Source of the DNA: Craspedostauros australis
Taxonomy: Eukaryota
Length of the DNA stretch: 57,032 nt
Direction of reading: 5' to 3'
NCBI GenBank assembly: GCA_030167865.1
Contig: JALAGF010006241.1
Span: 1 to 57,032 of the forward strand
The first letter of the stretch is position 1. The number at the start of each line of letters is the position of its first letter. The position numbers and the translations under genes were made by a program. Shown one piece after another: positions 1 through 42,481 of the stretch. The notes beneath the pieces are model-generated. The model saw only the letters and a program-made list of their open reading frames with translations. It was not told the origin of the DNA and ran no database searches.

Positions 1-1091
1 TGCTCTGCCTGGCATGTAGGTCCTGCCGGCAGGATGCTGCCATGTACATGATTGAATCAACGAATGCAAACATCAATGCTACAGGTGAAAATGGTTGGAC
101 TGCACTTCACTATGCATGCTCCGGAGAGAGTTTGGACATGGTGAAGGCCTTGCTGGAGTCGGGCAAGCTGGATATCAATCAATGCAGCCAAGGTCAAAGC
201 ACTCCACCACTCTATATTGCAATGAAGCGCAGGAAGACAGATGTCGTCAAGTATATCTTGGAATCAACCGATGTAGACTTCAACGTCCGAGATGACAGAG
301 GCGCATCCATGCTTCATATCGCATGTAAGGACAGAAGATTTGATATCGTCAAATGGTTGATTGAATCGTACAACGTTGATATCGAAGCAACAGACAATGG
401 AGGCGCCACTCCACTTCACACCGCATGTTGGCACGGCCGTGTCGAGATTGCGAAGTACTTGATGGAATCGTGCAACGCAAACACGGATGTCAAAGACAAC
501 TATGGGAGAACTTTACTCCATGCTGCGTGTTTCTCGGGATATGATCTCATGATGGAGTACATTTTGAACTCAATCAACGCAGACATCAACGCCCAAGATG
601 ACTTCAGTAGCACTCCACTACTTCACGCATGTTACTCTGGTTGTGCGGATGCTGTACAATACGTGTTGGAAGCAACGCAAGCAAATGTCAACGTGCAGAA
701 CAGCCGAGGTGACACTCCACTTCATTTTGTGGCTGGGTTCGCGGACAAATATTCCCCCGTGAAATTCTTGGTGGAATCAAGAAACGCAGACATTCATGCA
801 AGGAATCACAAGGGCGATACCCCACTTCACAAGGCATGTGACGGCAACAAATGGCGGGTTGTCAAATATATCTTGGAATCAACAGATGCAGATGTCAATT
901 GCCAGAACGACGCGGGCGAAACTCCGCTACATCTGGCCAGTCAAAAAGATCTCTTGAATACCGTCAAGCACTTGGTGGAAGTCTGCAATGCAGATGTAGA
1001 TATTCTGAACGACGCTGGTCACACTGCGATGACGTGCGCGGCTTCGTCAAGGTGGTGCCTAGCCTACAAGTACTTGAAGGAGCGTTCCTGA
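1..1091 (+). CDS. Ankyrin-repeat protein, 5'-truncated by the window edge
   Basis: About 10 tandem ankyrin repeats of 34-35 aa (GWTALHYAC, GATPLHTAC, GDTPLHKAC, GETPLHLAS...). The frame stays open upstream of the ATG at 42 and reads LCLACRSCRQDAA, itself ankyrin-like, so the true start lies before the window. Stop at 1091. Confidence 0.9.
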   Translation, partial: LCLACRSCRQDAAMYMIESTNANINATGENGWTALHYACSGESLDMVKALLESGKLDINQCSQGQSTPPLYIAMKRRKTDVVKYILESTDVDFNVRDDRGASMLHIACKDRRFDIVKWLIESYNVDIEATDNGGATPLHTACWHGRVEIAKYLMESCNANTDVKDNYGRTLLHAACFSGYDLMMEYILNSINADINAQDDFSSTPLLHACYSGCADAVQYVLEATQANVNVQNSRGDTPLHFVAGFADKYSPVKFLVESRNADIHARNHKGDTPLHKACDGNKWRVVKYILESTDADVNCQNDAGETPLHLASQKDLLNTVKHLVEVCNADVDILNDAGHTAMTCAASSRWCLAYKYLKERS

Positions 1092-1305: not shown

Positions 1306-4300
1306 TCACACATTGTCCTGGCCACTGTTGACGTATCGGAAGGTGATGAGATATTCGGGGTAAGCCTGTGCGTCATGGTACGTCACGTAGATGCTTGGGT
1401 TGTCCATCGTGTCGCCAGCCGCAAGACCTACGGTGGAATCGTAGAGGATGTTCTTCTCGTGGTCGCGCACATCGGGCGTCAGCATGTCCAGCCGTCCTGG
1501 ACAGTACTCTCCCACCATCACCCTGCATGCAATCATATAACGTCGGCCGGCGGAGTCAGCAACGGCATAGGCCTGATGCGCACTATAGGCTGCGTCTCTA
1601 GCGAAGTAAACGCCCTTGCCGTACATGGTGGCATTCTTGCCACAGAAGGAACGGTTGAAGCCTTGCTGCAGAATCTTTTCGATGGACTCCACATTCGTCG
1701 AGTGCCAGAGCCAGCATCGTTCGAATCGATCGACGGCGTTGCGCATGAGCCGGTCGGGGTTGGATTGCTCCATCACCTCGCTGTCCTGGATCTCTCGATG
1801 GCACATGGTTTGGCGCTTCACGACGTAGGATTGCCACATGGCAAGATTCTGAATGCGTTCCACGCCAAGAATTTCGACAGGATGACGGAAATTCTGCGAG
1901 TGCAACGACTCGAAGAAGGCCTTGCCCACCTTCTGGCCTTCGGGTTCGTTGGGTCCCAGCTCGTACCGTTCTGCGCTGCTTCGGTTGTTGATCCTGTCCC
2001 AGTACTTGGGCGGGGCCAGCACATCGGAGTCTCCGACGTTGGACTGCAGAGCCTTCAGGTCCTCGGATGTGGGAACGCGCGTCGTCTCTTGGATTGGGAA
2101 CCAACCAGTGTCCGTGTAGATGCTGCTTTCCTCTCCCGTGCCTCGGATCGCCATGTGCAACAGGCTGCGCGCTAGCATGTCGTCGGCGTGATGCAATTTC
2201 GTTCCGAAGGCCCACTCGCCGCCGCTGTGCGTTTTCGATATTTGGATGATATCACCACCGACGACAATCATCTGCGGCTCGTCCTTGATGTCGTCAGGTA
2301 TCGTGCCGTCGCCGATCAGAACATCGGACAGGTCGACGTCCTCCATCTGCGGTTGGACGTCGATGACTTCGATCTGCCGTGAAACATTGCGCTTGTAGTT
2401 CGTCTTGGCGTTCAGCTGGGTCATTTGCTCAAAGTCCACGTCGTAGCCTGGCAGAGGGCTGCACGATGTCAGTCCCTCCTGGTAGCACTTCTCCAGCTCC
2501 ATGTTGCTCAGCTCGCCATACTTGATCCAGCAGTCATCGATGTCACCGTAGATATCCTTGGTGTTGTGCTGCTCCATGCAGGCCCTGTTCTCCTCCCAGC
2601 ACCAAATGGCCTTCTCAATTCTGCCTGGCCTGTCGGCTGGGTCATCCTCCGTTGCGCTGCTTTGCTTTGGCATGTAGGCCCGGATGACGGCGCGCATACC
2701 AACGACGGAGTCTTGGAACTTCTTCACCTCGGCGTCGAGATGGTTGATGCGCTTCTTCAATGCTCGTGATTTCTTCTTCTTTTGATGCCGGTACACAAAG
2801 AACAGCGCGATGATGATACAGGCGACCGGGACGACGATGCCAACGATCAATGCGACGTTGATCTCGCGCCGATCGATGACCGGTGGTGAACCTTCGCACG
2901 GACAACCGCACGGGATGTTCCCCTGACAGATGCAGAAGGATCGGTCCTCTCCCACGCACGTACCAACGCCGTACGCCTCGCAATGCTGCATACCTTCCAC
3001 TGTGGGGCATTCCGCAACTAGGAGCACGTCAAAGTCCAATCCCTTGTACGTCATGTTGCCATCGTTGCGATCTGTGATAAGGGACATCTTCAGTTCCGGC
3101 AGTTCCTCTCGTATGCCCTCAAAGTCGAGCTCGATGATATCCTTGACGGCGCAGGAGCTGTTTGTGCACTTGCCGGTCTGCCAAGACGATGAGCACGCCT
3201 CGTCGTTGGTGCATGCCTCGAGGAAGAATTCTTGCTGCATGGATGTCGAATGGATGGAGAGCGTGTCGCCAGTATCGCTGGACGCATGCGCTTCGAGATC
3301 GAGCGGGGAGTTGAAGATGAGGCGGACGGCGACCGTGTCGGCTGGAATGGTCTTGTCCTCCAACGTCCACCTGCAACCTCCAGTAGACGACCAAGGCATC
3401 GCGCGGACGCGTCCGTACGATTTGGACTGGCTCAGCACGCGGCCGACGGTGTATTCGGGCGTCATGAGCGTCGTCGCAGGTGCCAAGGGGCTTGTGAATG
3501 CGCAATGCGGAATCTCGCAATTCTGACCCATCGACCCAAGCTCGGGACACGGCGCATCCTTGATGTCGATGTTTTGCATCTGCACGGTGGCAATGAAACC
3601 CCGTCGGCGACCTCGTGCATCGGTCATCAGACGCATGCTCGCGACGCCGTTGTCGGTTGGCAGGTAGTACGTCTCGGACTTGCTGATCTCCTTGTGGGTT
3701 CCGGTCAGCACCATGTAGGGTTCCGTGGAAGTCTCCGGACTGCCGGTCTGCAGCCAGATCAAGTCGTGCGTCGGTTCCAAATCGTACATGATGCTGACGC
3801 GGATGGTGCTGGGCTCCTGCGCGATGAGCATGAAGGTGCAATCGAGGTCGTTGGGGTAAGCGATGGCGGGATCGACGGGCGCGGCCGACAGGATGGTTCC
3901 ATTGCGCAGCGCCACGGGGTCCACCATATCGGAGCTCCGCAGCGTGTAGGGCGTGTTGGGCTCGCTGAATCGGATCATGTTCATGCCGAGGCACGTCTTG
4001 GTTTCGGAACAATCGGCACCCCAACCCAAGCCGCCGCATTCGCATTTGCTGTCGAAACAGCGGTGCTGGTTGCAGTCTGCGGAATTGGAACAGCCGATCG
4101 CGTCCCGGTCGTACGAGGCGAGGAAGCCGTCGCCGACCCTGCCGCTGTAGACTCGGTCCTGGTTGCTGTCGGTATCGAAATGGACGGAGATGCATCGGTG
4201 GCCGCGGAATTTGGGAAGCGTCAATGCGCCGTCGTCGTAGACGCCGGACAGCTGGCCGAGAAGGACGCCGCGCTGTCCCGACCTGCAGGAGTCGAGATCG

Positions 4301-6307
4301 GGGTGCTCGTAGATCCGCACGAAGTCGCCGGACCAAACGCGGAACGTGTCGAAGCTGATCTCGACCAACCCTTTGCAGGTGCCGTTGGACCGACGCGCCG
4401 CCCAGTCGTCCTGGCATGCGGCGCTGACCACGACCCATCTGCAATGCAGATCGTCGGAGTAGCTCTTGTGATCTTCGCCGTTGGCTCCGTCACCGAACGT
4501 GCCGACCATATCCGCCAGGACGGTCATGTTGAGGCAGGTGGAATTGCCGATGGAGGACTTGCCGGCCGGTGCCCGGCCAATCTCGTCCGTGGCGAATAAG
4601 CCTCGGCCTGTCTGGTTATCCATCCTCTCGAGCGCCGCGATGAGATGATCCGGGCCGTCGAGTTCCATCCGCACGGGCGGCGTTACGTTGGCGTAGCTCC
4701 CAACAGGCAGGCAAGCGTCGCACGGTTGAATCGCAGCGTACAGGAGGGAACCATCGAAGATGTCGCCACCGCACACGGACGCCGCGTCTCTGCACGTGCC
4801 GGACTCGTCCTGCAGCAGATCCAACGGTCCCAGCTGGGCCAAGATCTTCTGATCGACCAGGAACTCCGCCGTCTGCCTCGTCGCGATGTGCTGCAGCGAG
4901 GGCGCGGTGCAGTTGCCAGGTCGCGGTCCGAGGTAGTCGCAGGAGACCTGCTGCTGTGCCGTTTGCTGCACGAAGAGTCCCAAGTTGGTGCGCTGCGCGA
5001 ACTTCTCCTCGCTGCTGGGCTGGCCGGCGATGGATCCGCTCTTCATGAGCGTGTCGACCATGGATGAGATGAAGGAGCGCGGCGTCGTTTCGGATGCCTC
5101 CCACCTGTGGCTGTTGGCCTCGTCTACCTCGCCCAGCTCGTCCAGGAAGGAGTCGTTGAGCTTGGACAGCATGCCGACGAAGTGCTTGAGGAAGACGGGG
5201 TGGTTGCGTTCGAAGGTTCTCGTGGCTACGATGACCACGAAGGTGGGTCGGCCCCAGTCGGACAGAACGCGCGCCGACATGAGCGGCCTGGCTGCCTGCA
5301 TGCCTTCCTTCCCGCTGAGGATGAACTCCTTGGCGGATCCCCAGATGCCCGCCGCATCGATGAAGGGCAGTTCCGTGGTGTCGTTCCTCCAGGCTGTCTG
5401 GATGGCGGACGGTGACATGTTGATGACGTTGACGCCCTCCAATCCGAAGAGCTCTATGAGGAAGAGGATCTGGTAGTGCATCGTGGAACCGAATGGCACC
5501 GCCACCGTGCTGCCCTTGAGGTCGAATGGTGTTTCGACGCCCTTGTATCCGGACTGCGGATGGTCCGGGCGGACGTAGATGCCCTGGGCATCACCCTGGT
5601 ACTGCGAGATGTAGACGACCTTGGCATCCACACCACGTGCCGCAGCTGTTGCGAGGTAGGATTGGCGCAGAGCAATTTTGATTTGGAAGTGCATTGGATT
5701 GGGTGGTGGAGTAGATTGGAATGGATTAGGGCAGCGAAACGAGATGAAGCGTAGAACACGTTGGGAGGAAGTGCGTTGGTGAGACTCTGTGTTGCTGTTT
5801 CGGTAGACCCTCCAATGGTGTGCAAGTATGTGCATCTATGGAGAACGATATGCAATGGCAAAGCTTGGACAACACTCAACCCAGTGCAACCCAGTGCAAC
5901 CCAGTCCAACCCAGCCCAATGCTGCTCTGCATGTTGTCAATGTCGAGTGGCACAACTTGCAATCACAACGAATAGAACTGAACTGAATGGAATGGAATAG
6001 AAGAGTCGCATCGACACGCACCTTGCGCCCACGGCGTGGACCCCAAATTGGCAAGATCGAGCTGCAGATTGTCCAACCTCGATGATGCAAAGTTGCCGGA
6101 CGACTGCGGGTAGCATTCCACCTGGTACAGCACGTCCTCTTCCGGAATGTGCAGATCGAACCAGCCGCGAGCACATGCCACATGCGGCGGCCGGGCCTCT
6201 GTGAAGTACCCATACCGCACTCTGTGTATCGTCAGCGCTCGTGTGAGATGGATAATCTGGAAGAGGGCCGAAAAGGCCGTCAGCGTGGTGAGCGATGTGC
6301 GCATCAT
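1306..6307 (-). CDS. Receptor-like single-pass membrane protein: signal peptide, TauA-like solute-binding domain, CUB/EGF modules, TM, WWE, SH3-like and PARP catalytic domain (about 1541 aa; exons 6307-6022 and 5645-1306)
   Basis: Exon 1 encodes the signal-like MMRTSLTTLTAFSALFQIIHLTRA, then ...SSGNFASSRLDNLQLDLANLGSTPWAQ. A GTGCGT...AACAG phase-1 intron joins it in frame to AAARGVDAK...DLKGSTVAVPFGSTMHY (TauA/SsuA-type). CUB motifs: YSDDLHCRW, YPNDLDCTF, DLEPTHDLIW, GFLASY, GFIATV. TM: VALIVGIVVPVACIIIALFFVY followed by RHQKKKK. WWE: WCWEEN...WIKY...YDVDFEQMTQLNAKTNYKRNVSR. PARP: WHST...GFNRSFCGKNATMYGKGVYFA...SIYVTYHDAQAYPEYLITF. Confidence 0.88.
5646..6021 (-). other. Spliceosomal intron (376 bp) of the receptor-like PARP gene
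   Basis: Donor CAAG|GTGCGT and acceptor GCAACAG|CTGCG on the minus strand. Splicing restores the frame and gives a continuous TauA-like alignment (LGSTPWAQ-AAARGVDAK). The intron contains simple repeats. Confidence 0.8.
5877..5920. repeat. Degenerate 10-bp tandem repeat (CAACCCAGTG) x4 inside an intron
   Basis: caacccagtg caacccagtg caacccagtc caacccagcc is read directly. Confidence 0.8.
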
Positions 6308-7946: not shown

Positions 7947-10317
7947 CTAGTCAAGGAAGTTCTCGAGGTCGGCACCATCCTCGTTGTCGTCCTCCTCCAT
8001 CTGTGCGAATGTGAGGAAGTGCTGGGGGCGATGGCATTCGGCGTAGAAGTTCTCCGGGATGTCCACCTTCAGCCCGTAGTCCATGCGGACGTTGTGCTTC
8101 ACGCCCTGGAAGTTGTAGTTCCAACCCAGACCGTCGCGCGGCACCATGAAGAAACCACGGAAACGGTCGCTGAGGAGCATCTGCACCTTCTCGAAGCAGC
8201 TGGAGGAGTAGTCCTGGGCGTTGGCAACGCCGCCGGCAACGTTCTTGCTCTTCTCGCCCCATTGCATTCCGGCGTCTGTGACGCGGTACGCCGTGAGGGA
8301 GCACGAACCTTGCGTGAACGACGTCGTGATGATGATCTCGTTCTTGCCGTTCCAGGCGTTTGGATTGTCGCCCATGATGCTGGAGTGGGTAATGACGTCT
8401 GGAGCTGGCAGCACTTGCGTGCCATTCTGCACGATCTCGTTGGGCTGCGTGTGGATCCAACCCAGCGGCTCCAGATCCTTCAGCATCTCGTCATCCGGCA
8501 GCTTCTGCGGCATGGTCACGCTCTGGTGATTTCCGACCTGTGGCACCAACACGATGCACCGGATCTCGCGGACCTGGTCGTTGTCCTCTGGCGTCACACC
8601 GTACAGGTAACCCGCGATCTGGGTTCGCAGATCTGCGATGGTGATGAACTTCGACAGGATGTTCTTGGGCAGCACGTACGTGAGGCCGTCCTCCGAAATG
8701 TCCTCGGACGAGACGTAGATGTGCTTGGTACGGAGGTGCAGATTGGCGGCGCTGATGGCACGCACGCGCCAATCGGTCTTGCTCTGGAAGGTGGCGGCCT
8801 CGTACTGCGTGGTGGTCGTCACGACGATCTGCTCGCCGTGCACGTTTGTTGTCTTGGTCGTCGTGGCCGTCATCTGCGACTGCTCGCGAGTCTGGGCCTC
8901 GATCTCGGCGACCTGCTGGCGCTGCACGGATGGTGGCGCAATTTCCATGCCCAGAATGATGTCACGAATCTCACTCTGCGTCAAGCTGGAAACGTTCACG
9001 TTGTTCTTCTTTCCGTAGTCGGCCAGGATGAGGTCCTTGAGCGCAACCTCCACCTTCATCCACTGCTCGTCCGTCAGCGACGGCCACACGTGATGAGGTT
9101 CCGTCACGACGCTTCGGTCTGGACGCAGGATCTGCTTCACCTTATCGACATGGACGTGGAGTCCGCGCAGGATCAGGATCAGTCGGGAGAACGCGGTGTA
9201 CGACGAGATGGTCTTGAGCCAGTCATCGTAGATGTTGAATAGCACCATCTGCGGCTCGGTGGCACGCAGGATGAGGTCACCGAACTTCTCGACCTTGAGC
9301 GCGGCCTGGAACGGCAGCTGCAGCTCGGAACCCTTGAGGACGATGTTGGGGAAGTCAAGGGTATGCACTTCGAGCGGATCGAGCATGCCCTTGCGCGTCA
9401 CGATGATCTGCTTCGGCTGTTCTTCGATCGGCAACGAACGGATGAGGGCGGCAACTTCTTCTGCCGTCTTCCACTTGGCGAGCTGGGACAATCGCTTCTG
9501 TCCTGCCCACACGCTCGTGTGGATGATCTTGAGGAAGAGCTGTCCTGTTCGTGGGTTGAAGATGAAGATGGCTCCGTTGATCGGCTTGGTGGTCAGGTTA
9601 CCCTCGAAGGTCTTGTGAATGGTGACACGGTACACGTTCGTGTCATCCACGAACCAGATCACCTGGTTGCTGAACAGCTCACCGTAGTTCTGCGAACTGA
9701 GGTATGGCTCAGTTGGCTCACTGGAGTACAGCTGCAATCCCTTGCGGATGCGCTCGCGCAGCACGTACAAGGCTGGATTGGCCTTCATGATCTTGGCGAG
9801 AGCCTGCTGCATGAGCGGCTTGCCTCCTGGGATGTAGTTACCGAATCCGCTGTACAGCGAGTACGCAAGGTCGAACGCGATGAGACATCCTGTTGGCGAT
9901 GGGTAGATGCTCATGTTGTCCGTGGTGTAGTCGAGGTACTTGGCACGCGAGTAACGCTCGATGTCATGGGAGTCGAAGTCGCCCCATCGGAGCTGGATGT
10001 CCAGCCAGTACTTGTTGGAGGTGCTGCCATCGTAGTCGTCGCGGGTGTCGTGGAGCAGACTTGGCTTCGACACCGGCCACTTGTAGGCGGCGAACAGCAC
10101 CAAATCGGCACAGCTGCTGTTCATCTTGTACGACTTTCTTGGATGGATCGTCTCCTTCTGGACGGTCTCGATCTCGAGGGCATCCAATTCTTGATCGAAC
10201 ACCTGCACGATGTCCATCACCACACTCTCGTGGATCTTCTGCCACAAGTGAGCACGGAAGATCTGGATGAGAGAGATCTTCAGCGTGGGGATCTTACCGT
10301 GCATGAAGATACCGGTG

Positions 10318-10358
<41 letters not shown>

Positions 10359-12188
10359 GTTGATGGTGGGTGACCACCAGAGCGTGAAACGACGGTTCGG
10401 AATCTGCGTCAAACCGGAACGCTGGGCGTTTGTCAGTTTTTTGCTGTGGTGGGAGAAGCAATGAGAGATTGCGGAGGATGGCAAACGAGGAGGACAAGAA
10501 AAGGAGGAAGCAAGGAAGACGCAGAGGTGAGTTGAGTTGGCTGTGACAGGCGTGTTCGAAGTGCTGTGAAATATTGGCATGCGATCAAACAACAATCAGA
10601 CCAAGTGAAGCAGCAACGCAGCAATCCATCACATTTGGCGTAGCCATTGTCCACTTACAATTTCATGCTCTCCTCGAAACCAGATGCTTTCTCCCAGAAC
10701 AGACCCTCCCAAGTTGGGAAGTAGGTGCCCTTGAAGAGACTGTGCTCCAGGATGCCCTCGACTCCTCCAAGAGCCTGGATCATATCCGTACGGTAGGAGT
10801 TCAAGTTCCACAGCTTTCCGTCGTGGCGCGCATGCGTCCACCAGAATGGATTCACGCGCAGGACTTGGAACATCTTCATCTCCGTTCGCACACGCCAACC
10901 GCGGTCGTACGCGAGGGTGTGACGGTCCTTGCTGAAGAGGGTGTTGATACGTGGGATACCTCTGTCCCAGGAATCCTCAAGATCCTCCAGCGTCAGACGC
11001 CTGTTCTGAGCGTTGGCCTCCTGTCGCTTCAGAGCGTACTCGGCCCAGACACGCTGAGAGTCCACGAACTCACTTTCCCAGGACTGGATGTAACGGAACA
11101 AGTTGGGGATGAGCTGATCGGCATCGTGGCTCAATCCGGAACGGAAGTGCGTCACGCCCATGTCGGTCTGCTTGCTGTAGCGCAGGTCGCTCTGTGGGAT
11201 GAGAACGTGTCCCATCGACAGCATGCCCAGTCCTCCGAGTTCCTTCGGGCAGTAGAACACCACCGGTGGGAAACGGCTTGGCATCTTACTGTTCAGCCCG
11301 ATCTTGATTCTGGTCTGAATCTTGTTCTCGTTCTTCACCAGCAAGTCGAGCAGCTCCTGAGTGTTGAGCACGGCCTCACGGTAGTACGTCATGAGGCCAA
11401 TGACGGCAGTGTTCCATTTGTTGGCGATCTTGGTGAAGGTCGTCGCACCGCTGCTCATCAAGATTTGACGGATGCGGTTGTCGAAGGCTTGCACGGCGAT
11501 CTCTTCGACGCGCAGATGAGCCTGCGCCGTCATTTCCTTCGTGGTGTCGTTTTGGAGGTTCCACACACCGTCGCGGTAGGTGGTGGCGGCCTGATCGGCG
11601 AAGCCTGGCTGCAGCGCTCCTCTGCTGCTGGTTCGCAGCGGCTTGATGCGGATCTCGAAGCCGTTCATGTCGAAGAGCAGGTTTGGATTGTCGGCGCTGT
11701 ACACGCTGACGAAGGAGTTGTCCCAATCCAAAGTGGTGAGGCTGCGTGGCAGACGGTTCTTCATGTCCCAGAAGACGGCGCGGCCGAGGTTGACATCTCG
11801 CTTCAGCAGACGCATGCGGCAGTCACGTGGCCAGCACTTCTTGTTCCTGTACCCCACGGCGTTCTCGTTGTTGGGGTCGGGATGCTCGATGAGGTAACGC
11901 TGGATGAGGTCCTTGCCTTCGTTGGAGTCGAATTTGAACACCATGTAGACCTTGTCGAGGTAACGCGTGTACATGCGGATCGGGTGGTTAACTTCGGTCT
12001 CGACATCCGCGTAGGCGAGGTATTCGTTGGGACGCTGTGGTGGCCCGGCGATCTCGCTGGCGCGCGTGAGTCCCAACACCAGCAGATCCAGAATGAGACC
12101 GTAGTACTGCGTGAGGAAGGATGCGAACTGAAGGCCACGAACGAGACCGTAGCTGTTGGTATGCATCATGTCCTTGAAGGAGATGCTG

Positions 12189-12223
<35 letters not shown>

Positions 12224-13184
12224 GTGATCCACGATGAGGCGCAGGAGACGATTGAGCAAGGTGAAGTCGAGCTTCTCGTAGAATTTCTCGAACTTCGATT
12301 GGACGAGGACCACGCTCTCTCCGTCTTCGGCGTCCCAGACATTCTCCAGGTTGTTGATGCCCTGGCACCACTTGTACACGAGGAGCGGCGGTGGTTCGGA
12401 GTCGGCCGGCTTGACCCAGTTGGGGAAGAGGTGGCGCTTGTCGGCTTCGTACCAGAGGTACTGATCGAGGTAGGCGTCGGTGATCTTCTCGAGCGGTTCG
12501 ATGGTGTAGACGGGCGAGAGGTACTCGTACATGTCCATGAACTCGATCTCGACCTCCTTGAACGTGCGTTGCGTCAGCAAATGGCGCTTGATGCGGCTGA
12601 GTGCCTCGTGCGGGTTGTCGTAGGCCTGCTCAACCAACGCCAGCTCTTCGCGAGCCGTGCTGTTGAGACGCATCTGAAGTCCGTATCCCTCCTTGAGGCG
12701 CTCGAGCGCGAGGATGAGAAGCTTGGTGTCGTGCTTGTAGGACAGGGGCGGGAAAGGAATGGGCGTGAACTTCCTGCTCTCCAACCAGTGCACGGTGGTG
12801 GTGTAGATGGCGACGGCCTCTTCTGCCGAGACGTACGGTCCGTCCTTGAGGTAGTTGTGCTGACGCTCCTGCTCCGCCTTGAGCCAAAGTCGCGTGAGAC
12901 GGCCCAAATTCTTGCGCACGACGGTCTTGTCGACCGTACCGCCGCGCTTGATGCGCTCTCGGTTGTAGTGGGCGATGTTGGTCCACCAGTCAGCCTTGGA
13001 CTTGACGTAGCGCAGGATCATGTTCTCGATCGGCGCGGGCATGCCTGGGACCTTCCACGGGATGTTGGCCTTCCAGCAGCGGAAAGCTTCGCTGAGATGA
13101 CTCAGGATGACGCGCGACTTGTTCTGCTTGACGCCGGCGGGCATCATGTCGAGGATGTCATGCATGACAGAGGCGCGCAGCTCG

Positions 13185-13216
<32 letters not shown>

Positions 13217-15553
13217 GACGTTCTTGGCGAAGGACTTGGAGAGACGGCCCTCGAACTGACGCGCGAGGAGATTGCCCAGCCAGCGCTCGAGGAGCGGGAC
13301 GATGCCGCGCATGAAGAAGATCCAGACGCGCCAGCTTGGTGCCCAGAATCCGACGCCGGGTCCCTTTCCGACGGGCCCGGTGTTGAAGCGGTAGTAGATG
13401 AGATGCTTGAGGTCCTTGCATGTGCGGATCTGGCGCATGACACCGTACTTGTAACGGTACATGCCCGTGAGCTGACCGACGTGGTTGAATGCGTACTGCA
13501 GACCGTCGGCAAGCTGGTAGGAGTCGATGTTGGCGAGGCGGAACTGCACGTGCGCGTCGACGACGAGCTTGGTGAGACGCAAGATTTCTCGCACGAGATG
13601 GAAGGCGTTTCCGAATCGCGACTTCTTACGTTCCTTGGTCGTCAAGGTCTTGGTCGGCTTGAGGTTGAAGTTGTAGTCGAGGTGCAGGTACTTGAGCTGC
13701 TTGCGGCTGATGAGGAGGTTGAGGATGTTGTGTCCTTGGCGGCACACCTGCAGACCAGCCTCGACCCAGTCGAGTTCCGTGCGCTGGAAGAACTTGGTGC
13801 TCTTGAGGCTGCGGAACAGATCGCGCTTGGTCTTTGGCTTGTCGGGCTTGCACTTGAGCTGGTTGAGGACCCATGCCTTGAGGAGCTTCTGGTAGGAGAC
13901 GCGGACCTTGGTGGGGTAGTTGAGTTCGCGCGAGACGCGGTCGCGGTACCAGTGGCCGATCAACGGCACGTCGATGGTGCGTCGCGTCGTGCCAGATCGC
14001 ATGTTGAAGGGATGCGGCGCGGCGAGGAGGGAGATACCGGCCGACGTGTTGGGCGTCGCCAACGGGGTGTGGACCAGGAGCGGTTCGAAGGTGGCGGACG
14101 ACATGACCTCGTCATCCTCCTCCCAGTACGTGTCGTGCTCATCGAACTGCGACCAGACGTTGTCCTCCTCAAAGTCCTCATCGACGTCGCCGACGAGGGG
14201 CAGGAAGCTGTCCTCGGCGAACTCGTCGCCGGGATGGGCGGACCAGTTGTGCTTCTCGACGCGCATGATGGGGTTGAGGGAGGAGGGGAAGGTGCGCAGA
14301 CAGAAGGTGTCCTCATCGTCGTCATCCTCGTCGTCGTCGCCGCGCACGTAGTTGGACTGCACGTGGTGGTAGGGCGCCAGGTGTACCTTGCGCGGACGCG
14401 AGTTGTAGACGTGCGGGAAGGCAATGCGGTACTCCGTGCGGATGGGCTGGCGGATGATGATCTTGGAGATGTCGTTGAAGTCGTTCCAATCCTCGTCGTT
14501 CTCAACGTCACGGAAGAGGGGATCGAACTTGGGTCCTCCCGGGATGGCGAGGTTGAGGGCCTTCGCCGTGAGGAAGTGCGGCAGATCGAAGAGGTAGTGG
14601 ACGTTCCTGTCTGGGTTGTTGTTGAGGAGGGGCCCGGCGAGCTCGTGGAGCTGCGCCATGACGGGGGTGCTGAGACGCCACTCCTTGTAGCTGGGCCCGT
14701 TGAGGTGGACGTGCTGCGCCAAGGGCGTGCCGCGGTACGTCGCGATGTCGCTCAATGGCTGCGGATCGTAGAACCAATCGCGGATGAGGTCGTACTGATC
14801 ATCTTCGAGATCGAGCTGCACGGCCTCACCGGGCTCGACGTTGAGGAGATGGTCTACGTAGTCCAGCGGCGGCTCCTCGTCGTCGAAGGGCGGGAAGCGG
14901 ATGCGCTTGAAGTGGCGACGATCGCGCTTCTCGCGGCGCATCATGAGCCATGCCGTTCCCCACTGCGCGCGGTAGACGGGCTCGATGACCTTGGGCACCT
15001 CGTCCACGAAGCTGATGGCTCCCGTGATGTGGAAGAGGATGGGTACTTCCTTGTAGGACTCCCAGGGCATGGGCATGTTCTCCATGAGCTTGTAGAGGGA
15101 GTGCGGCAGGTACTTGAGCGCTCCGATGTAGAGGCGGCGCTCCGTCTGGAACCTCTTGGACGACATGTCTCCGTGATCCTGCAGGATCTTGCGCAGGAAG
15201 TCTGCCGGCATGACCTCCTTCTGCGGAGCCGAGAAGACCTGGTTCTTCGCTGGAGCGGCGTTCTCCTGCTTGACCTGGTGGTGCATCTTTCCATCGGCCG
15301 CCTTGATGGCGTCCCTGTCCAGGTCGGACATGGAGGTGGCCTCGAAGGGGACCTTGTCGGGTGGAGGAGGGATTCCACCGTAGGATGCACCGGAGTACAC
15401 CGCGCTGGGGGGCATGGACGGCGTCATGCCTGGTGGAGGCGGCGGTGGTGGCGGAGGGGCCATCCCAGGCGGCGCCATTCCCGGTGGGGCCATTCCAGGC
15501 GGTGCCATTCCAGGCGGTGCCATGCCTGGCGGTGGAGGTGGAGGAGGGACCAT
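7947..15553 (-). CDS. PRP8: Pre-mRNA-processing-splicing factor 8 (about 2463 aa; exons 15553-10659 and 10443-7947)
   Basis: Highly conserved Prp8 sequence ([104 protein letters not shown]-terminal Jab1/MPN LGWIHTQ). A 215-bp intron at 10444..10658 (TT|GTAAGT...CACAG|C) restores EESMKFKKLTNAQ. Confidence 0.98.
15415..15545 (-). repeat. Coding 15-bp repeat (GMAPP x5) flanked by poly-Pro at the PRP8 N-terminus
   Basis: Translation [42 protein letters not shown]. Confidence 0.85.
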
Positions 15554-15845
15554 CCTTCTCTCGCTGCTGTTGAGTGCCGACTACCTGAGTAGCTGAGTGG
15601 CTGAGTGGCTGATGTGGAGTATCTACTCTACAGTGAACACACTACTTCTGCTCGCACTTATAATAATAGCAATGGTCAATGACAGTCAGTCGATCCAATC
15701 ACTGCCAACGATCAACAACCTTAACTGGATGTGTTAATCGATCGGTGATCGTTTCTTCCTGTCCTTGCCTTGCCTTGCCTTGCTGGCTTTGACTTGATCG
15801 GTGATCTGTTGGTCTCGAGCAAGTTGTGGGAACAGGCAAACCAAG

Positions 15846-18127: not shown

Positions 18128-21100
18128 TCACTGCGGCGACTCGTTGGCCATACTGGTGTACTTCTGCACCAGAAGCGCCTCGGACTGTTCCACTGTGGCG
18201 GGATCAAAGCCTTCGTAGCGCTCCGGTTTCTGCTCGCACAGAGACAAGTCCACGTGCTTCAAACAGCAGAGTCCCAGCACGACCTCCGGCTCCTCCTGAT
18301 TCTCATCGGCACCTGCATCGCCAGTGCTCTTGGACTTCGCACCCAACGATGGCCTGCCGTTCTTGTTCGGCGGTTGGATAACGAGGGCCAAGTCAATCGC
18401 GATGTTCTTGATGTACCGTTTCACGATGCTGGACATGCCGCGGATGGCCTTGTTGCCCATCAATTCGACAGTGACTTCCACAGTGCAGCACGAATTCTTC
18501 GCGGCGTCCGCATCGTGCTGATTGTAAATGGTGTCGACGAGACCGCGTCGGTAGATCGGAAGGACGGACGCCTTCGGGGCCATCATCCGGATGGGCAACG
18601 GCGCGGACACGATGTGAGGTACGATCTTGAGCCGTTCGCGGCGGTACTTGTTATCTCCCTTGAGGAAGCGTTTCAGCGCCCTCGTGCGGCTGTCGTCCGC
18701 AGGCGTCTCGATGAGGCTCTCATCAAAGTCTTTGACCCAATCCGGCATTTTGAAGTACACCAGGATGTTGCCCCACTGCGACATGGCATTGACGATGAAC
18801 GTGGGGACATTGCGCAGACCGTTCTGGATCAAGAATGGATGCGTGCCGGCCTCCTCTTCGGCGTCGTCGGAAAGGAAGATGTCCATTCCGCGCAACTCAA
18901 AGAAAGGCTCAAACTCCTGCTGCTGTCCCAGCTCATTCGCCTTGGCTTCCTCGGTATCGAACGTTCCGATGGAAATGCTGGAGCTTGACGCGGCGTTGCC
19001 ATCGATGCTTGGATGGGTGCTGCTGCCGCTATCCATTCGACCATACTCATGAGGAGGATCTGACGATGGCGATTCGGACCTCATCTGCTGCGCACCTATG
19101 CTGCTGCGCCTGCGTTGCTTGACATCATGCTGCGAAGGATGCTCCACTTGAGTCGCCGAGGATCTTCTCGCCTTGCGCGTCGAGAGGGTCTTCCATGGCT
19201 TGGGCCGTCTGCGACGTGAGTTTTTGAAAGGGGACGATCGCTGTTGAGTTTGGTCCGCATCCTGAAGCGCTTCGGCCGTGTACGGCTGGGTGGTGGCAGG
19301 AGCGCCTTCCATGTCACCTTGTGGAGGTGCGTCATGGCTGGATTCGCGCGTTTGCGTGGGTGGGTCGATCTCGGATGTGGGCCGACCCAGCACAACATGG
19401 TCAAAACCAGCGACGACATCCTTCGCATCGATCCGGATGCCGACAGTGAAGGCAGCCAGCATCAAGCCAATGACGGCGGACCATGGGAAATCGTTTTGGA
19501 GGATCTCGTGTCGATGCAGGATGATTTGATCGATGGAATACAAACAGCAGTGAATGATCATGATCGTCACCCAATCCACGGTTTTGCCGTCTCCGTCTTT
19601 GCCTCCAATCAGATTTAGCAAACTTCCGAAGGACAGAGCCGATCTTGTGCCCAGCAATGCTGACCGCGAGCTGTTCATGCTGTGACCCGACAAATCCCGA
19701 TCATGGTTGGACAACGACGACGGCGATGACAATTCGGACATCCCACTTTCATTGCGCGCCACATGCTTGGGCGAGGACATGGAATTCGGAGTCGCACCAT
19801 TCTTGCTCTCCATGGCGCCGTCATCGTCGTCGCCCGATGACGGAGTCCTCTTCGACCGCAGACTGCGCGCGATGGTCTTGCCGACATTCTTGGATCGCTT
19901 CTTGAGCGTCTTGGCAACCGTGGCGACGGCCTTGGCGGCCTTCTTTGGATCCTTGCGCTGCCTGCGATTGAGGCGCTGACCGTCGTCGTCGTCCAGGCTT
20001 TCGCTGTTGCCTGCCGATTCCCTCCTCGCCAGCAGCGCTTGGATGATGTGGCTGCGATGCGGAGATCGATCGGCTCTGCCCGATCTCGCTTTTCTGCCTG
20101 CCAGGGGTGGTTTGTCAGGAGTAGGCGAAGTTGCAGTGACATCTCCATTGCTGTTCGTCAGCAAAGGTGTGGCCGTATCGATCGTCAAGAGTTGACGCGA
20201 CGCCGACTGCGATGTGGGTTCTGCGTCAGCTTCGAGATGGTGCTCATCCGTCGAATCAGCTCGCCTGTGGCCAATCTTCCACGGCAAGGATTTGCTCCCA
20301 TCCTTGGAGGATCCTCGCAATGCCGCCACCATCTTCTTTGCGGTCAATTTGTTCCTGGGAGACTTAGGAGCCTTGGGCGTCCTGTTTTGCTTCGTCGTGG
20401 ATTTGAATCTGGCCATTGCTGCTGCAGCCGCTGCGGCTGGCTTGTTCTGTTTGGCGCTGGCCGGAAGTTGTTGGGCATCGGCAGTTTCATCGGCCTTGAC
20501 ATTGATCGCTGCGCCAACTTTCGATTCGGTGTGATCGAACTCGACCGCACCGAGACTGGAAAAGGATGCTCCCGCTTCATCCGCGATATTGGCGAACGAC
20601 GCATGCTGCGATTCCGAATTGTCTCTGATGTACGCATCGATGTAGGAGGGCCCGTCGTCATGCTCATCGAGGTCCATAGTGCGCGCGGAATGCGACGAGG
20701 CGGAGGCGATATCCGCCTTGCTGTGCTTCGTCCCGTCCAAGCTGTCGCTGTTCGCCTCCAAACCGACGTAGAACTCGTCTTCAAAGTCGCTGGTATGCCG
20801 CTCGGCGTCGTCAGGAGGACGGTTCCTCGCATCGCCATCGTCATCGAACGAGTCCGTGACAGCGCCATGCTCATGATTGCCATCGCTGGACCGGATACGA
20901 TCGCGAAAGGTCTTGGCGACCTTCTCTCGCACGCGGCCTCTCGTTTGCTTGGCGGCCTGCACGACGTTGGAATGAAATATGCGGCCGCGTTCCTGCGTGC
21001 GTTTGGCGGCGTTGGAGACCTTGCCGCGCAGCCGATCGGCGAATCTGCGCGGTCGGCCGTCGTTCATCAGGACCTGATCGAGGTTGTTGCTGATGCTGTC

Positions 21101-21406
21101 GTGGAAGGTATCTTCGTCGTCGTCGTCGTCGTCAAGGAGGAGGACGTCGCCCGCGCCTCTGCTGTGTATCGAGAGCGCATCCTGTGCGGCCAGTCCCTTT
21201 GCGTCATCCGCACCAATGGATGGTGGCATCTTGAGCATCGAATCCGGAGGTTGGATGGCCCCCGTGCTGTGTCTCCTGTTGTCATCCATCATGGCGTGCG
21301 GAAGGTGGCTCTTATCATCGAGCTCGCTCGCATTCATATTGTCGTTGCTGTTCGTTTCATTGTGGGGAACGCCGTCCAACGATGGAACAGATCGCGCGCC
21401 TTCCAT
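18128..21406 (-). CDS. Protein with a long disordered N-terminus, two predicted TM helices and a C-terminal EDR2_C (DUF1336)-like domain
   Basis: 1092-aa ORF. The C-terminal FELRGMDIFLSD...TFIVN...LVYF...LKRFLKGDNKYRRERLKIVPHIV...IDLALVIQ...EEPEVVLG pattern matches EDR2_C. Hydrophobic stretches: WVTIMIIHCCLYSI and WSAVIGLMLAAFTVGI. Confidence 0.75.
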   Translation of the reverse strand: MEGARSVPSLDGVPHNETNSNDNMNASELDDKSHLPHAMMDDNRRHSTGAIQPPDSMLKMPPSIGADDAKGLAAQDALSIHSRGAGDVLLLDDDDDDEDTFHDSISNNLDQVLMNDGRPRRFADRLRGKVSNAAKRTQERGRIFHSNVVQAAKQTRGRVREKVAKTFRDRIRSSDGNHEHGAVTDSFDDDGDARNRPPDDAERHTSDFEDEFYVGLEANSDSLDGTKHSKADIASASSHSARTMDLDEHDDGPSYIDAYIRDNSESQHASFANIADEAGASFSSLGAVEFDHTESKVGAAINVKADETADAQQLPASAKQNKPAAAAAAAMARFKSTTKQNRTPKAPKSPRNKLTAKKMVAALRGSSKDGSKSLPWKIGHRRADSTDEHHLEADAEPTSQSASRQLLTIDTATPLLTNSNGDVTATSPTPDKPPLAGRKARSGRADRSPHRSHIIQALLARRESAGNSESLDDDDGQRLNRRQRKDPKKAAKAVATVAKTLKKRSKNVGKTIARSLRSKRTPSSGDDDDGAMESKNGATPNSMSSPKHVARNESGMSELSSPSSLSNHDRDLSGHSMNSSRSALLGTRSALSFGSLLNLIGGKDGDGKTVDWVTIMIIHCCLYSIDQIILHRHEILQNDFPWSAVIGLMLAAFTVGIRIDAKDVVAGFDHVVLGRPTSEIDPPTQTRESSHDAPPQGDMEGAPATTQPYTAEALQDADQTQQRSSPFKNSRRRRPKPWKTLSTRKARRSSATQVEHPSQHDVKQRRRSSIGAQQMRSESPSSDPPHEYGRMDSGSSTHPSIDGNAASSSSISIGTFDTEEAKANELGQQQEFEPFFELRGMDIFLSDDAEEEAGTHPFLIQNGLRNVPTFIVNAMSQWGNILVYFKMPDWVKDFDESLIETPADDSRTRALKRFLKGDNKYRRERLKIVPHIVSAPLPIRMMAPKASVLPIYRRGLVDTIYNQHDADAAKNSCCTVEVTVELMGNKAIRGMSSIVKRYIKNIAIDLALVIQPPNKNGRPSLGAKSKSTGDAGADENQEEPEVVLGLCCLKHVDLSLCEQKPERYEGFDPATVEQSEALLVQKYTSMANESPQ

Positions 21407-22164
21407 CGTTTGCCGACCGTGCTTGCCGACGGTGTTTGGTTGCAGACAGGTTCCAGGAGAGTGTGGATCAGTGCAGATTGGAACAGACGCACTCTTTCTC
21501 TCTCAAGAGAGCGTGTCCACGAACAGAGACTCACTCTATCTCGTTCTCTATCCGTCTATCTATAATATCTATCTATCGTGCTTCGTGTTTATGATCAGAC
21601 CGAGGCGAAGGAGACGGCTTCGGTGTTTGATCTTGTTCGTGGAGCAAGACGTCACGAAGTGAGATGAGACCAACCAAGAACCTCCCTCGCGTGATGTCAC
21701 TGTGCCAAGAAAACCCCAACAACTATTTCCACAACACAAACAACGCACAGAGTCCATTCCAAGATTCTCACAAGACGACGCGCAATTCCTCCGTTCTCAA
21801 CGCAAGAAGAAGAGCGGTCAACGGTTCTTCCGCCAATGACCGGGTGCGCGACATCGAAACCATCTTCGTCATTCCGCGCCGTCTTGGTCGTGGTTTTCCA
21901 TCATTCGTGTTTGGGCGGAATGAAACACGAATAGTCGTAGACCAACCGTCCGACCTAACGATGATAGAGTCGACAAGGACCTACTCTACTCCATGGTCAT
22001 ATTACAACATAACACAACATGATATTATTATATTCAATACATTTCAATACATACCAACAGTAACTGACACGTCTGATCAGATATTATTGTTCGCATTATT
22101 ACCCTGCTGCATATTTCATATCTCATCTAATAGTTCTTCTTCTCTCCACTCGTTGTTCCATCCA

Positions 22165-39680: not shown

Positions 39681-42481
39681 GACTGAAAATACACATCGTA
39701 CTCGTAATACATGTAAAATAATAGTAGCAGAGGAATGCATTCGGAGGTGGGAAGAGACAAGGATCGTAATTGCAGGTAGGCAATAGAGATGGTGGCGGTC
39801 GCGCGGGTGGTGCGTGAAGGAATGCTGCATGGTACGACGACATGTATAGCACACAGGGTGAAAGGATTCGTGGGAGAATAAGTGTGGCACGTGCGGCATC
39901 CCAGAGAGATCTGGATGGATCCCTCTGTTCTCCGGTACAATGAGGAGGAAAGGAATCGAAGGAATACCACACATCAATGTCCCATCATCCACCAGGATTC
40001 ACCTTGTTCGTCTGCATCTTCTCCTGTTGTGATTTTGCGCAACAAGAGAGGGATGCGATCAACAGTGGATTCCGCTCGGGTACAACTCCATTTTGTGAGA
40101 TCAACATTGACGCGTCATCCGCGATTTCAAATTGTTGAGAAAGCGCACCTGCGTGACAGTGCTCGTAAGATGCGCACCCTTGCGAATGAGTGATTGGAGA
40201 TGGGAGGAATGAATGGGAAACGCAAAGCACATGCACAATCGAGGCGGTTGAGATGTTATAGATCTTACCAAACCAGCACCATAGTGGAGGACATGTATGC
40301 GTGTTAGAAACGATGAGCGAGCACCCACCATGTGGAACTTGGAGGACCTCTCGATCTCGCGCAACTGCGAATAGGACACAAGCGCTCTATTCTATTATGT
40401 TATATAGTACGAGTAGTATAGTATTACATATTATTATATGAAGCTTGCTGTGTTACCAAAAGCACAGAGTAGAATTGCAGTGGAGGAGAGCAGAGCAGGG
40501 GGATCAATGCTACAGGTTGGAGCATCAAAGTAGTCGTATGGAAGAGGGATCGAAGAAGCATCCTGGATGCGTCAGTCGGCAACGACAACGTGCACACATC
40601 TATGATGTCGCTTGCGATGGCGCGAAAAGGAGAAAATTGAAGTTCGTGCGACACAGTGACCAATCCCTCTGTCCGTGTCGAATGACTACTCCTTTGTGCG
40701 CATTGGATCTCTGCTCCCATCCAGCCATCCAATCCATCGGCTTGCATCATTGTTCCCTTCATTCGGCGGTTTGTGAGGTGTTAAGCAACCTGCTCGGCGC
40801 TGTGCGTTGCACTGCATTGCGTTGTGTGTTGTATTCGTATCAACGAGCCCGCAGGATGACGCACGGTTAATTTTAAGAGAGGGAGAGAGAGAGATGAAGA
40901 GATAGCACAGCATGTGCTATTGGTCCAACCCAACCCATCTGTTTGTGCTGTTGGTGGGTGGGTGTCATTGTTACTCTCTGCGTGGCGCCATCCATGGGCA
41001 TCGCTACCATCCCTTCATGTTTGTGGTGGGTTGTGTCTTTGCGTGAGTTGTTGTGTGTGACTGGCGACTCCCATTGATTGGGGCAAGCAAAGAGCGATGA
41101 CGCACACACACAGTATCACTGAACAAGACTGAACAGACACAACAACTCACAGAATCGTCACGACTGCGCGAAATGGTCGAGTAAATTAGCTCAAAACCCC
41201 AAGAAGTGGCGCTCGCGCCCAGCCGGTCATGCGGATGCTTGTGTGTGACTGGCTCGCTCACGAAGAGTTTTCGAACCGGGGTGCGCGTGTCTGCCGTTGG
41301 GACAGCCGTGTGGTGTCACGAGGAACACGGCGATAACAAAAACTAGCGCCGACGATGGTGTCTTCGTGCTCGTAGTCGGAGTACTATACTATACGCGAAA
41401 CAGTACGGGTGGAGGCGGAGGGATAGCAAGAAAGAGGGAAGAAGAGACAGAGCAAATCAAGAAAAAAGAGAGCCAGCCAGGCGGAGGGAGAGGAGGGAAG
41501 GAACAAAAGAGGCAGAAGGCAAGGGAAAGGAAAGGCAAACTCCGACAAGCAATAATCCCAACAGCAAAGACACAGAACCAAGGCAGAGGAACGAGAACTG
41601 GAGGCTGCTGCACCAGAAATAGCAACAACAACAGCTACAGCCATAGCTACAGCCACAGCGGCATTGAAACATTCGCCAAGATCCACTGCTTGTCATCTCT
41701 CTCTCACTCTGGGAGGACATTGAATGCCAAAGGCACCAAGGAGCTGTGCACAATCCATCCAAAGAGCCGTCCAAACACGAGGTAGAGGAGAGCACACCTT
41801 GTGCCATCCCACACTTCGTGAAGCAGCGACAGCAGCAGCAGCAACAGCCAGCTGAGATCCACGCAGCGACAGCACACTCTTGCTCCCACAAATCGAAACT
41901 TGCATCCTTGCGCAAAAAGCGCATCATCCATCACTCGCTTCCTGTTCCATTCCTTCAGACAGCGCAGAACCGAACAGCATTGGGAGGTCAGCACTTGCGG
42001 ACAACTCAATCCATCACAGCAACGGCAGCGGCGGCAACTGTGGCAGAAGGAGCGTTCATCTTGTTGTTTGGCGCCATTCATCCAATCAACCATCACGCAG
42101 TCACTGCAATCATTATCGCAATCATCACAGCAATCATCACAGCAACTCAGATACTCGTGTAGCACTCACATAGAGCAACAGAGAGTATCGGCAACCACAA
42201 TACACACACAAAACACACACAATACGAGCAGACCCCACCTGCAGACAGATTACTATTATACTATCCTTCACCAGCTGTGCATACTCTGCGGGCACTCTGC
42301 ACCAGACAGTCAACGGCAGCTCTGAGCATCGAAGGAACAGACGCTCGGAACAATCTCATCGATCTTCCGAGTTCACAGCAATCTCAGCTACAAACCCATT
42401 CAGCATTCCACGTGACATATTTGCAGTCCAAGCATAGTGCAAGCATAGTGTAAGCACAATCCAAGAACAGCAGAGCACCAC

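Follow-up and report, generated by a model that had tools for sequence, protein, structure and literature searches.

A putative receptor enzyme of Craspedostauros australis joins a solute-binding ectodomain to a cytosolic PARP domain

We analysed a stretch of 57,032 nt from Craspedostauros australis (assembly GCA_030167865.1, contig JALAGF010006241.1, positions 1 to 57,032, forward strand; the window in what follows) and describe here a minus-strand gene at 1306..6307. With a probability of about 0.6, we propose that the product of this gene is a receptor enzyme, a type I protein that crosses the membrane once and has an ADP-ribosyltransferase output. From the N-terminus, the product carries a likely signal peptide, a solute-binding domain, a stalk of three CUB-like domains with EGF-like modules, one transmembrane helix and, on the predicted cytosolic side, a WWE domain, an SH3-like barrel and a PARP catalytic domain. 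A receptor of this kind had been suggested from the letters of the DNA alone (the original prediction), and the suggestion is now supported at the level of sequence, fold and comparison. The gene model, the order of domains, membership in the PARP, WWE, binding and CUB families, the conserved catalytic motifs and a two-way modularity of the family are established by the analyses below.

The original prediction had read one spliced open reading frame of about 1541 aa, and this structure holds. Coding exon 1 (6022..6307) opens at the first ATG of the upstream frame, at 6307, the protein beginning MMRTSLTT; it encodes residues 1-95 and the first base of codon 96, and aligns with the N-termini of orthologues. 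Coding exon 2 (1306..5645) ends with the stop codon at 1306-1308. The intron between them (5646..6021, 376 nt, phase 1) has a GT donor at 6021/6020 and an AG acceptor at 5647/5646. Joining the 286 and 4340 nt (6307-6022 and 5645-1306) preserves the frame, and the product has 1541 aa and a single stop, at its end; an unspliced exon-1 frame runs into a stop within the intron. The exon junction (LGSTPWAQ/AAARGVDAKV) is gap-free in the alignment with orthologues. The stop-to-stop frame on the minus strand (1306..5835, 1509 codons; the long frame below) was used as the source of search queries. No second copy of the gene was found within the window.

With residues 60-1509 of the long frame as the query, 132 matches with an expect value (E) <= 0.001 were obtained among 5637 candidates, 120 of the matches being listed; the statements on relatives made from this search refer to the matches listed. 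Eight relatives are full-length, with 38-49% identity over 96-99% of the query, and include proteins of Seminavis robusta, Cylindrotheca closterium and Nitzschia inconspicua as well as a complete transcriptome open reading frame, P0005. Three MMETSP frames marked complete (P0005, P0017 and P0020) show the full order of ectodomain, transmembrane helix and PARP. The architecture recurs in diatom genomes and in MMETSP transcripts, with full-length orthologues at 35-49% identity. The animal matches (PARP14, PARP10) cover 9-22% of the query, which corresponds to the catalytic domain. Database names of the relatives are automatic, for instance 'polymerase 14', 'receptor family ligand binding protein' or 'taurine ABC transporter periplasmic ligand binding protein'.

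These relatives also bear on the reading that an annotation or assembly artefact has fused the gene of a secreted binding protein to a PARP gene. The C. australis gene model was built from the genomic sequence, which leaves such a fusion some room. However, exon 2 alone is a single 1445-codon open frame that runs from the binding domain through the PARP domain, and the same order is found in the eight full-length relatives, from three named genomes and a complete transcript. We consider the artefact practically excluded, and the separate genes that might have undone the original prediction did not appear.

The PARP catalytic (ADP-ribosyltransferase, ART) domain (1333..2013; this and all other features of the gene lie on the minus strand) was identified by Pfam, by residue alignment with PARP15 and by fold. 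The Pfam match to PF00644 has an E of 1.2e-21 (77.6 bits against a cut-off of 26.7). The best sequence matches are PARP15 (E 6.3e-33), PARP14 (6.7e-31), PARP10 (6.9e-29) and PARP12 (2.5e-23), with weaker ones to PARP13 (2.5e-11) and RCD1 (3.5e-4). Human PARP10, PARP14 and PARP15 are the closest solved catalytic relatives, at 33-37% identity and fold-comparison Z-scores of 20.5-20.8 (root-mean-square deviation, rmsd, 2.5 over 189 residues at Z 20.8; Foldseek E 9.5e-16), and like them the C. australis domain has a hydrophobic third triad residue and not Glu. H1410 (1702-1704), Y1442 (1606-1608) and I1514 (1390-1392) align with the triad positions of PARP15 and make up the pattern H-Y-[E/I/L]. 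H-Y-I is the triad of PARP10, and enzymes of this type transfer single ADP-ribose units. Because the triad is H-Y-I, the domain is predicted to carry out mono-ADP-ribosylation from NAD+.

Could the domain be a pseudo-enzyme instead, binding NAD+ or ADP-ribose or acting as a scaffold in the manner of PARP13 and plant RCD1, with signalling through partners of the WWE and SH3-like parts? In PARPs the backbone of the Gly after the catalytic His contacts nicotinamide, and in the C. australis protein this residue is replaced by Ser1411 (1699-1701), so that the H-G-[ST] motif is not present. Its TCG codon is two base changes away from any Gly codon, and two relatives outside the alignment carry Ala there. 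Inactive PARP folds also figure among the structural neighbours (PARP13 Z 17.6, RCD1 Z 15.8, TASOR Z 15.0). Against this, the triad is complete, and all 31 aligned family members agree in the GKGVYFA, Y-S and later Y columns. The sequence is far closer to the active PARP15, PARP14 and PARP10 than to PARP13 or RCD1, and the Gly after the His is kept in 28 of 29 aligned relatives. Of 96 columns with a conservation of 90% or more among 30 relatives, the C. australis domain keeps 92, a share within the range of the other members (0.77 to 1.0); Ser1411 is one of the four deviations. We therefore hold the pseudo-enzyme to be improbable: with the reservation made for Ser1411, the predicted PARP domain does not look dead by its sequence.

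The relationship to PARP10, PARP14 and PARP15 appears to be confined to the catalytic domain. Macro, KH and RRM domains were not found in the C. australis protein by Pfam at E <= 1, and since these are absent and the animal matches cover so little of the query, the protein is related to these enzymes in its catalytic domain but is not their orthologue. In contrast to it, the human enzymes are soluble, possess macro, KH and RRM domains and lack a signal peptide, an ectodomain and a transmembrane helix. PARP14 is described with a WWE domain directly before its catalytic domain (PMC10450202), as in the C. australis protein.

The predicted transmembrane helix with a basic stop-transfer was recovered. 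Residues 1026-1048 (2788..2856) form the only segment of the 1541 aa whose 19-residue Kyte-Doolittle (KD) hydropathy exceeds 1.6, reaching 3.2, and Pfam gives a weak Syndecan transmembrane match there. Directly C-terminal of the helix stands YRHQKKKKSRALKKR, with the stop-transfer YRHQKKKK; together with a juxtamembrane helix (helix 2-25 of the cytosolic model) it occupies residues 1049-1076 (2704..2787). Cys residues number 38 on the N-terminal side of the transmembrane helix and 10 on its C-terminal side; for N-x-S/T sequons the counts are 12 and 4. Residues 1-24 (6236..6307) are a likely signal peptide by a hydropathy heuristic, with small residues at -3/-1 before Leu25. Of the proposed signal peptide, a moderately hydrophobic N-terminus is confirmed (best 11-mer KD 1.89 against 0.64 +/- 0.57 elsewhere in the protein), its function as a signal being assigned by heuristic; most full-length orthologues have clearer and stronger hydrophobic N-terminal segments. 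The positive-inside charge at the transmembrane helix and this heuristic signal peptide suggest that the protein is probably a type I single-pass membrane protein.

Two other topologies were rejected. The first is that of the ecto-ADP-ribosyltransferases (ARTC), whose catalytic domain is of the R-S-E type and lies outside the cell. The C. australis protein would share with them ADP-ribosylation linked to the cell surface, but it has an H-Y-I PARP-type domain, placed on the cytosolic side of the transmembrane helix. The second is the tail anchor of PARP16, likewise a membrane-anchored mono-ART with a cytosolic catalytic domain. PARP16 is assigned to clade 6 and is given a C-terminal transmembrane region and no sensor domain (PMC4245714). 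In the C. australis protein, in contrast, the sole transmembrane helix (residues 1026-1048 of 1541) follows an ectodomain of 1000 residues and is separated from the C-terminus by 493 more, and the fold comparison with PARP16 reaches only Z 11.4.

For the cytosolic part, a model was made on a 31-row alignment (mean predicted local distance difference test, pLDDT, 81.0). Its juxtamembrane helix has the consensus EL..FRDSVVGMR, which is conserved across ectodomain classes. The WWE domain (2356..2619; Pfam core 2377-2550) matches PF02825 at E 4e-10 (40.4 bits against a cut-off of 21.1), and its fold matches TRIP12 (Z 11.3), HUWE1 (Z 10.7), DTX1 (Z 10.5) and RNF146 (Z 9.5), all of them ligand-bound structures. 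Seven of its columns (W, W, E, Y, Q, R, R) are invariant in the 31 sequences. A phmmer search of the PDB with the WWE part alone gave weak matches (E 0.095-0.6), and for this reason the assignment relies on Pfam and fold. WWE domains are readers of ADP-ribose or adenine nucleotides. Residues 1211-1289 (2065..2301) form a beta-barrel with a helical insert, recognized by fold only: the best match is the SH3 domain of Vav (Z 6.9, rmsd 2.0 over 65 residues), followed by 19 further rows at Z 5.3-6.0 of which at least 17 are SH3 entries, all below the caution line of Z 8. Pfam detected no SH3 match in the C. australis protein at E <= 1, and the barrel is suggestive of an SH3 fold. Of the three cytoplasmic domains foreseen in the original prediction, WWE and PARP are secured by Pfam, and the SH3-like one is suggested by fold at Z 5.3-6.9. 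A homodimer prediction for the cytosolic part scored 0.06, which is evidence neither way, and a search of the ESM Atlas returned generic PARP/WWE clusters only, all under 0.9.

Outside the membrane, residues about 25-370 form a solute-binding domain of the TauA/SsuA/NMT1 type (4822..6235, the intron lying inside it), in agreement with the periplasmic-binding-protein domain first proposed. It matches NCBIfam TIGR01729 (TauA) at E 4.8e-19 and SsuA_fam at E 8.9e-7. The score against TIGR01729, 68.9 bits, is far under the equivalog cut-off of 304.25, so that no equivalog is assigned. E. coli TauA (6ssy) is the sole PDB sequence match of the domain (E 2.5e-11; 27.5% identity over 305 columns). With a profile of the orthologues, TauA is matched at E 5.2e-44, SsuA at 2.8e-12 and 3e4r at 3e-9. 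PF09084 and PF13379 are present in orthologues, which places the two-lobed domain at the superfamily level of SsuA, TauA and NMT1; in the C. australis protein itself, NMT1 was not matched by Pfam at E <= 1.

We mapped the taurine site on an alignment of E. coli TauA with the C. australis protein and eight orthologues, with the contacts as reported for TauA (PMC6906117): Gln30, Gly61, Gly79, Glu106, Thr132, Trp176 and Asp205. Four positions are kept. Gly61 (here G71) and Gly79 (G89) make backbone contacts to the sulfonate in TauA, Thr132 (T150) contacts the sulfonate by its backbone and the amine by its side chain, and Trp176 (W197) makes a van der Waals contact seen with MES (PMC6906117). The other three are replaced. 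Gln30, a side-chain contact to the sulfonate, is Phe35; Glu106, which holds the amine and is essential for binding, is Gln116; and Asp205, which holds the amine and contributes to taurine selectivity, is Val232, a position that varies among orthologues (functions from PMC6906117). The Gln30 and Glu106 replacements are identical in all eight aligned orthologues. The residues of the amine site not being kept, taurine was rejected as the ligand, and because three of the seven contacts differ no other ligand can be named. The pocket keeps the backbone anion contacts and loses the amine site; the predicted ligand is therefore probably a small anion other than taurine. TauA is thus the closest solved relative of the sensor; unlike TauA, which serves the TauABC importer, the sensor here is fused to a membrane protein and serves no ABC importer.

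Between the solute-binding domain and the membrane, the three CUB-like domains of the original prediction were borne out by fold and by the orthologue profile, not by Pfam matches of the protein itself. A linker containing Cys (residues about 371-465, 4537..4821), which has low pLDDT in the stalk model (model residues 1-100) and no family match, leads into CUB-like domain 1 (residues 466-611, 4099..4536). Then follow an EGF-like Cys-rich spacer (3994..4098), CUB-like domain 2 (residues 647-787, 3571..3993), a short second Cys-rich spacer (3457..3570), CUB-like domain 3 (residues 826-974, 3010..3456) and a third EGF-like Cys-rich module that adjoins the membrane (2857..3009). The CUB-like domains were delimited on the stalk model and by Foldseek. 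The first spacer was recognized by its Cys pattern and matches to CUB1-EGF-CUB2 entries, the second by Cys pattern and model, and the third module by Cys pattern and conserved Cys columns. The stalk model itself was made with AlphaFold2 on a 20-row alignment (mean pLDDT 77.4, predicted template modelling score 0.74).

A PDB sequence search with the stalk alone returned nothing meaningful (E 0.41 and 0.81), which is why a fold search was needed. By Foldseek, the three beta-sandwiches match the multi-CUB proteins cubilin (E 1e-17), neuropilin-2 (9e-15) and PCPE-1 (1.5e-13), and also CUB1-EGF-CUB2 pieces of MASP, C1r and C1s. The orthologue profile matches cubilin at E 9.4e-12 and, over the second domain, a neuropilin-2 CUB at E 7.7e-6. 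CUB and EGF domains were not detected by Pfam in the C. australis protein itself at E <= 1; PF00431 (CUB) is found in 13 of 57 non-animal relatives among the matches listed.

Precomputed Pfam hits of these 57 relatives show that the tail does not always carry the same ectodomain. An ANF_receptor ectodomain is found in 29, CUB and/or NMT1 in 13, LRR plus HRM in two, and Bmp, PBP_like_2 and Cache in one each; in the remaining 10 no ectodomain Pfam was detected. All 57 contain an internal hydrophobic helix. Seminavis, Cylindrotheca and Nitzschia each possess members of the NMT1/CUB type as well as of the ANF type, and Aureococcus has two members (P0050, P0056). An exhaustive HMMER search with the 490-residue cytosolic tail widened this picture: the cluster representatives number 4862 at E <= 1e-3, falling to 2045 at 1e-10 and to 204 at 1e-30. 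Among the best 150 tail matches, 142 representatives were new, and 49 of these are at least 600 aa long; in 39 of the 49, a hydrophobic helix lies upstream of the matched tail. Pfam assigns ANF_receptor to 21 of the 49 (two also with 5_nucleotid_C), Peripla_BP_6 only to one, Cache to six, PBP_like_2 to one and LRR to one. The remainder have no ectodomain match or are non-receptor forms (animal PARP14, tandem PARPs, C2-WWE proteins, a kinase-PARP fusion). Odd PARP architectures were also seen among the relatives P0244, P0148 and P0227, with He_PIG, a protein kinase and PARP in one chain, and three or five PARPs in tandem.

In a tree of 76 cytosolic tails, built by a quick maximum-likelihood method, the ectodomain label has to change 18 times, the smallest possible number being six. 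The starred branches of this tree alone force at least seven changes for ANF, four for NMT1/CUB and two for Cache; single placements are unsure, as the method was a quick one. Judged from these comparisons, sensors appear to have been exchanged repeatedly on one conserved chassis of transmembrane helix, WWE, SH3-like barrel and PARP. Among its sequence relatives, the tail occurs with no fewer than six kinds of sensor ectodomain, a result that goes beyond the original prediction.

Exchange is also seen in the other direction. An ectodomain-only search (residues 60-985 of the long frame) gave 19 matches at E <= 1e-5 among 5763 candidates, 14 of which carry precomputed WWE or PARP hits. A search for the same ectodomain with another output found one such partner. 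P0266, a complete transcriptome open reading frame of 1584 aa, aligns to residues 24-1088 at 40.9% identity over 1106 columns. The two share the solute-binding and triple-CUB ectodomain, the transmembrane helix and the juxtamembrane helix as far as its first turns; the C-terminal part of P0266 is PDEase_I, a 3'5'-cyclic-nucleotide phosphodiesterase (E 6.2e-72), in place of WWE-SH3-PARP. This finding, too, goes beyond the original prediction. One sensor module is joined to a phosphodiesterase in one protein and to a PARP in another, which argues strongly, if circumstantially, for the PARP tail as a signalling output. As far as sequences tell, this two-way swapping of modules, ectodomains on one tail and outputs on one ectodomain, is the pattern of receptor enzymes. 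In another relative, P0269 (1978 aa), a related NMT1 and CUB ectodomain is joined to six further hydrophobic segments (about residues 1019-1407); the same sensor may here have taken a polytopic form, as a receptor or a channel.

Several points weigh against a receptor enzyme. Both the signal peptide and the transmembrane helix come solely from hydropathy. Ser1411 stands where Gly is expected after the catalytic His, and the taurine site differs from that of TauA at three of its seven residues (Phe for Gln30, Gln for Glu106, Val for Asp205), with four kept. The sole public run over the locus (run X1, its kind guessed) gave one contig at 1200-1992, possibly DNA; it is 1664 nt long, identical to the window and continues into the neighbouring ankyrin gene, and is uninformative on splicing and expression. 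Adhesion and matrix proteins, too, typically contain CUB and EGF modules. Finally, the coupling between ligand binding and the enzyme is a step that we infer.

The last two points are what favours a membrane-tethered, constitutive mono-ADP-ribosyltransferase, whose ectodomain would serve adhesion, matrix contact or nutrient capture and would merely place the enzyme at the membrane, without regulating it. CUB-EGF arrays are classic modules of contact between proteins or with the matrix, and the best fold matches of the stalk are of that sort (cubilin, neuropilin, PCPE-1, MASP). Yet relatives swap in established small-molecule sensors (ANF_receptor, Cache, PstS-like, Bmp), the same ectodomain is also joined to a phosphodiesterase, and the juxtamembrane helix is conserved across ectodomain classes. 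Sensor swapping together with a conserved juxtamembrane helix is the pattern expected for signal transfer and is unnecessary for mere tethering; we therefore regard the constitutive tethered enzyme as rather unlikely, although it is the strongest of the alternatives to a receptor enzyme.

How might such a receptor enzyme work? The three CUB and EGF-like modules would form a rigid stalk outside the cell, carrying a Venus-flytrap solute-binding domain. Closure of this domain on its ligand could be relayed via the stalk and the transmembrane and juxtamembrane helix, probably in an oligomer, and the relayed signal would switch the transferase on or off. The receptor might then modify itself or substrates bound to the SH3-like barrel, a likely docking site, and the WWE domain would read the resulting ADP-ribose mark. 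All steps beyond binding something outside are ones that we infer, as are the plasma-membrane location, the catalytic activity and the ligand.

A variant of the receptor reading would have the family sense danger or microbes, as a receptor set resembling innate immunity whose activation would consume NAD+ or tag proteins in a stress or cell-death response, and not nutrients or infochemicals. LRR ectodomains in the members P0057, P0058 and P0138 fit this idea, and so does the kinship of the catalytic domain, its closest animal enzymes being PARP10/14/15 and PARP12/13, with a ZnF antiviral role of PARP13 reported (PMC4245714). Solute-binding types nevertheless form most ectodomains in the relatives, and the C. 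australis sensor is closest to a sulfonate-binding protein, which makes danger sensing a distinctly improbable variant.

The layout of the receptor enzyme as we propose it, with an ectodomain, one transmembrane helix, a juxtamembrane linker and a cytosolic enzyme, is that of the receptor guanylyl cyclases and natriuretic-peptide receptors and of the diatom receptor-type cyclase/phosphodiesterases. Moreover, paralogues of the C. australis protein use the same ectodomain family as receptor guanylyl cyclases, ANF_receptor (PF01094). The difference lies in the predicted output, protein ADP-ribosylation from NAD+ and not synthesis or breakdown of a cyclic nucleotide; kinase-homology and cyclase domains were not found in the C. 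australis protein by Pfam at E <= 1. To our knowledge, ADP-ribosylation by PARPs is an intracellular modification made by soluble enzymes or by tail-anchored PARP16.

Transmembrane PARPs as such have been noted before. Perina et al. 2014 (PMC4245714) present PARPs of the heterogeneous clade 3 in sponge and Rhizaria that combine a PARP domain with a transmembrane segment, either as an N-terminal transmembrane segment followed by PARP or with H_lectin and a transmembrane segment. In its accessible text, however, no solute-binding ectodomain, WWE-SH3 tail or receptor reading is given for them, and at least two PARPs of Thalassiosira oceanica appear there without mention of a receptor layout. The accessible text of Citarelli et al. 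2010 (PMC2964712) gives Phaeodactylum, T. pseudonana and Aureococcus as without PARPs, against which stand the two Aureococcus proteins with a receptor-PARP tail in the database (P0050, P0056). In the available text of a 2026 preprint on PARP modularity, receptors appear as an analogy only. Full-text literature searches found no description of receptor-type PARPs and no characterised family with this architecture; an earlier passing mention is possible, most likely in the review of Aravind et al. 2015. The novelty that the original prediction had left in doubt is to this extent upheld.

We tentatively extend this to the whole family, at somewhat less than even odds: diatoms and pelagophytes may possess a large modular set of cell-surface receptors that convert the binding of an outside metabolite or nutrient directly into intracellular mono-ADP-ribosylation, a class of receptor enzymes of its own. 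If so, receptor-PARPs would stand alongside receptor kinases, cyclases and phosphatases, and a direct ADP-ribosylation output would extend the outputs of single-pass receptor enzymes to a new chemistry. Sensors of the sulfonate, amino-acid, phosphate, nucleoside and Cache types would then be a candidate chemosensory system for algal nutrients and infochemicals. Given that the ectodomain types are ones for sulfonates, amino acids, phosphate, nucleosides and other small molecules, members of the family are concrete candidates for the receptors with which diatoms sense nutrients and chemical cues. The tail family is large in ecologically dominant algae that have been treated as PARP-less or PARP-poor in what surveys state (PMC2964712, PMC4245714).

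The neighbours of the receptor gene are eukaryotic nuclear genes, for Prp8, a ubiquitin-E1-like enzyme, MutS, a histone deacetylase and ankyrin repeats. The ankyrin-repeat gene (window 3-1091, plus strand) converges on the receptor gene, with stop codons about 215 nt apart, and the contig of run X1 covers both 3' ends without a difference. The Prp8 gene (7950-15580, minus strand) consists of two long open frames (15580-10658 and 10595-7950); its U6-snRNA-binding domain is divided over both (profile positions 2-73 and 71-159), so that an intron of about 60 nt is likely near 10596-10657. A frame of 1395 codons at 42449-46633 (plus strand) has an MFS_1 transporter match in its middle only (residues 691-850), between large flanks without a family match at E <= 1e-6. 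In a 1124-codon frame at 18131-21502 (minus strand), only the C-terminal EDR2_C domain was matched (E 4.8e-17). The N bases at window positions 56145 and 56151 are the sole ambiguous positions of the stretch.

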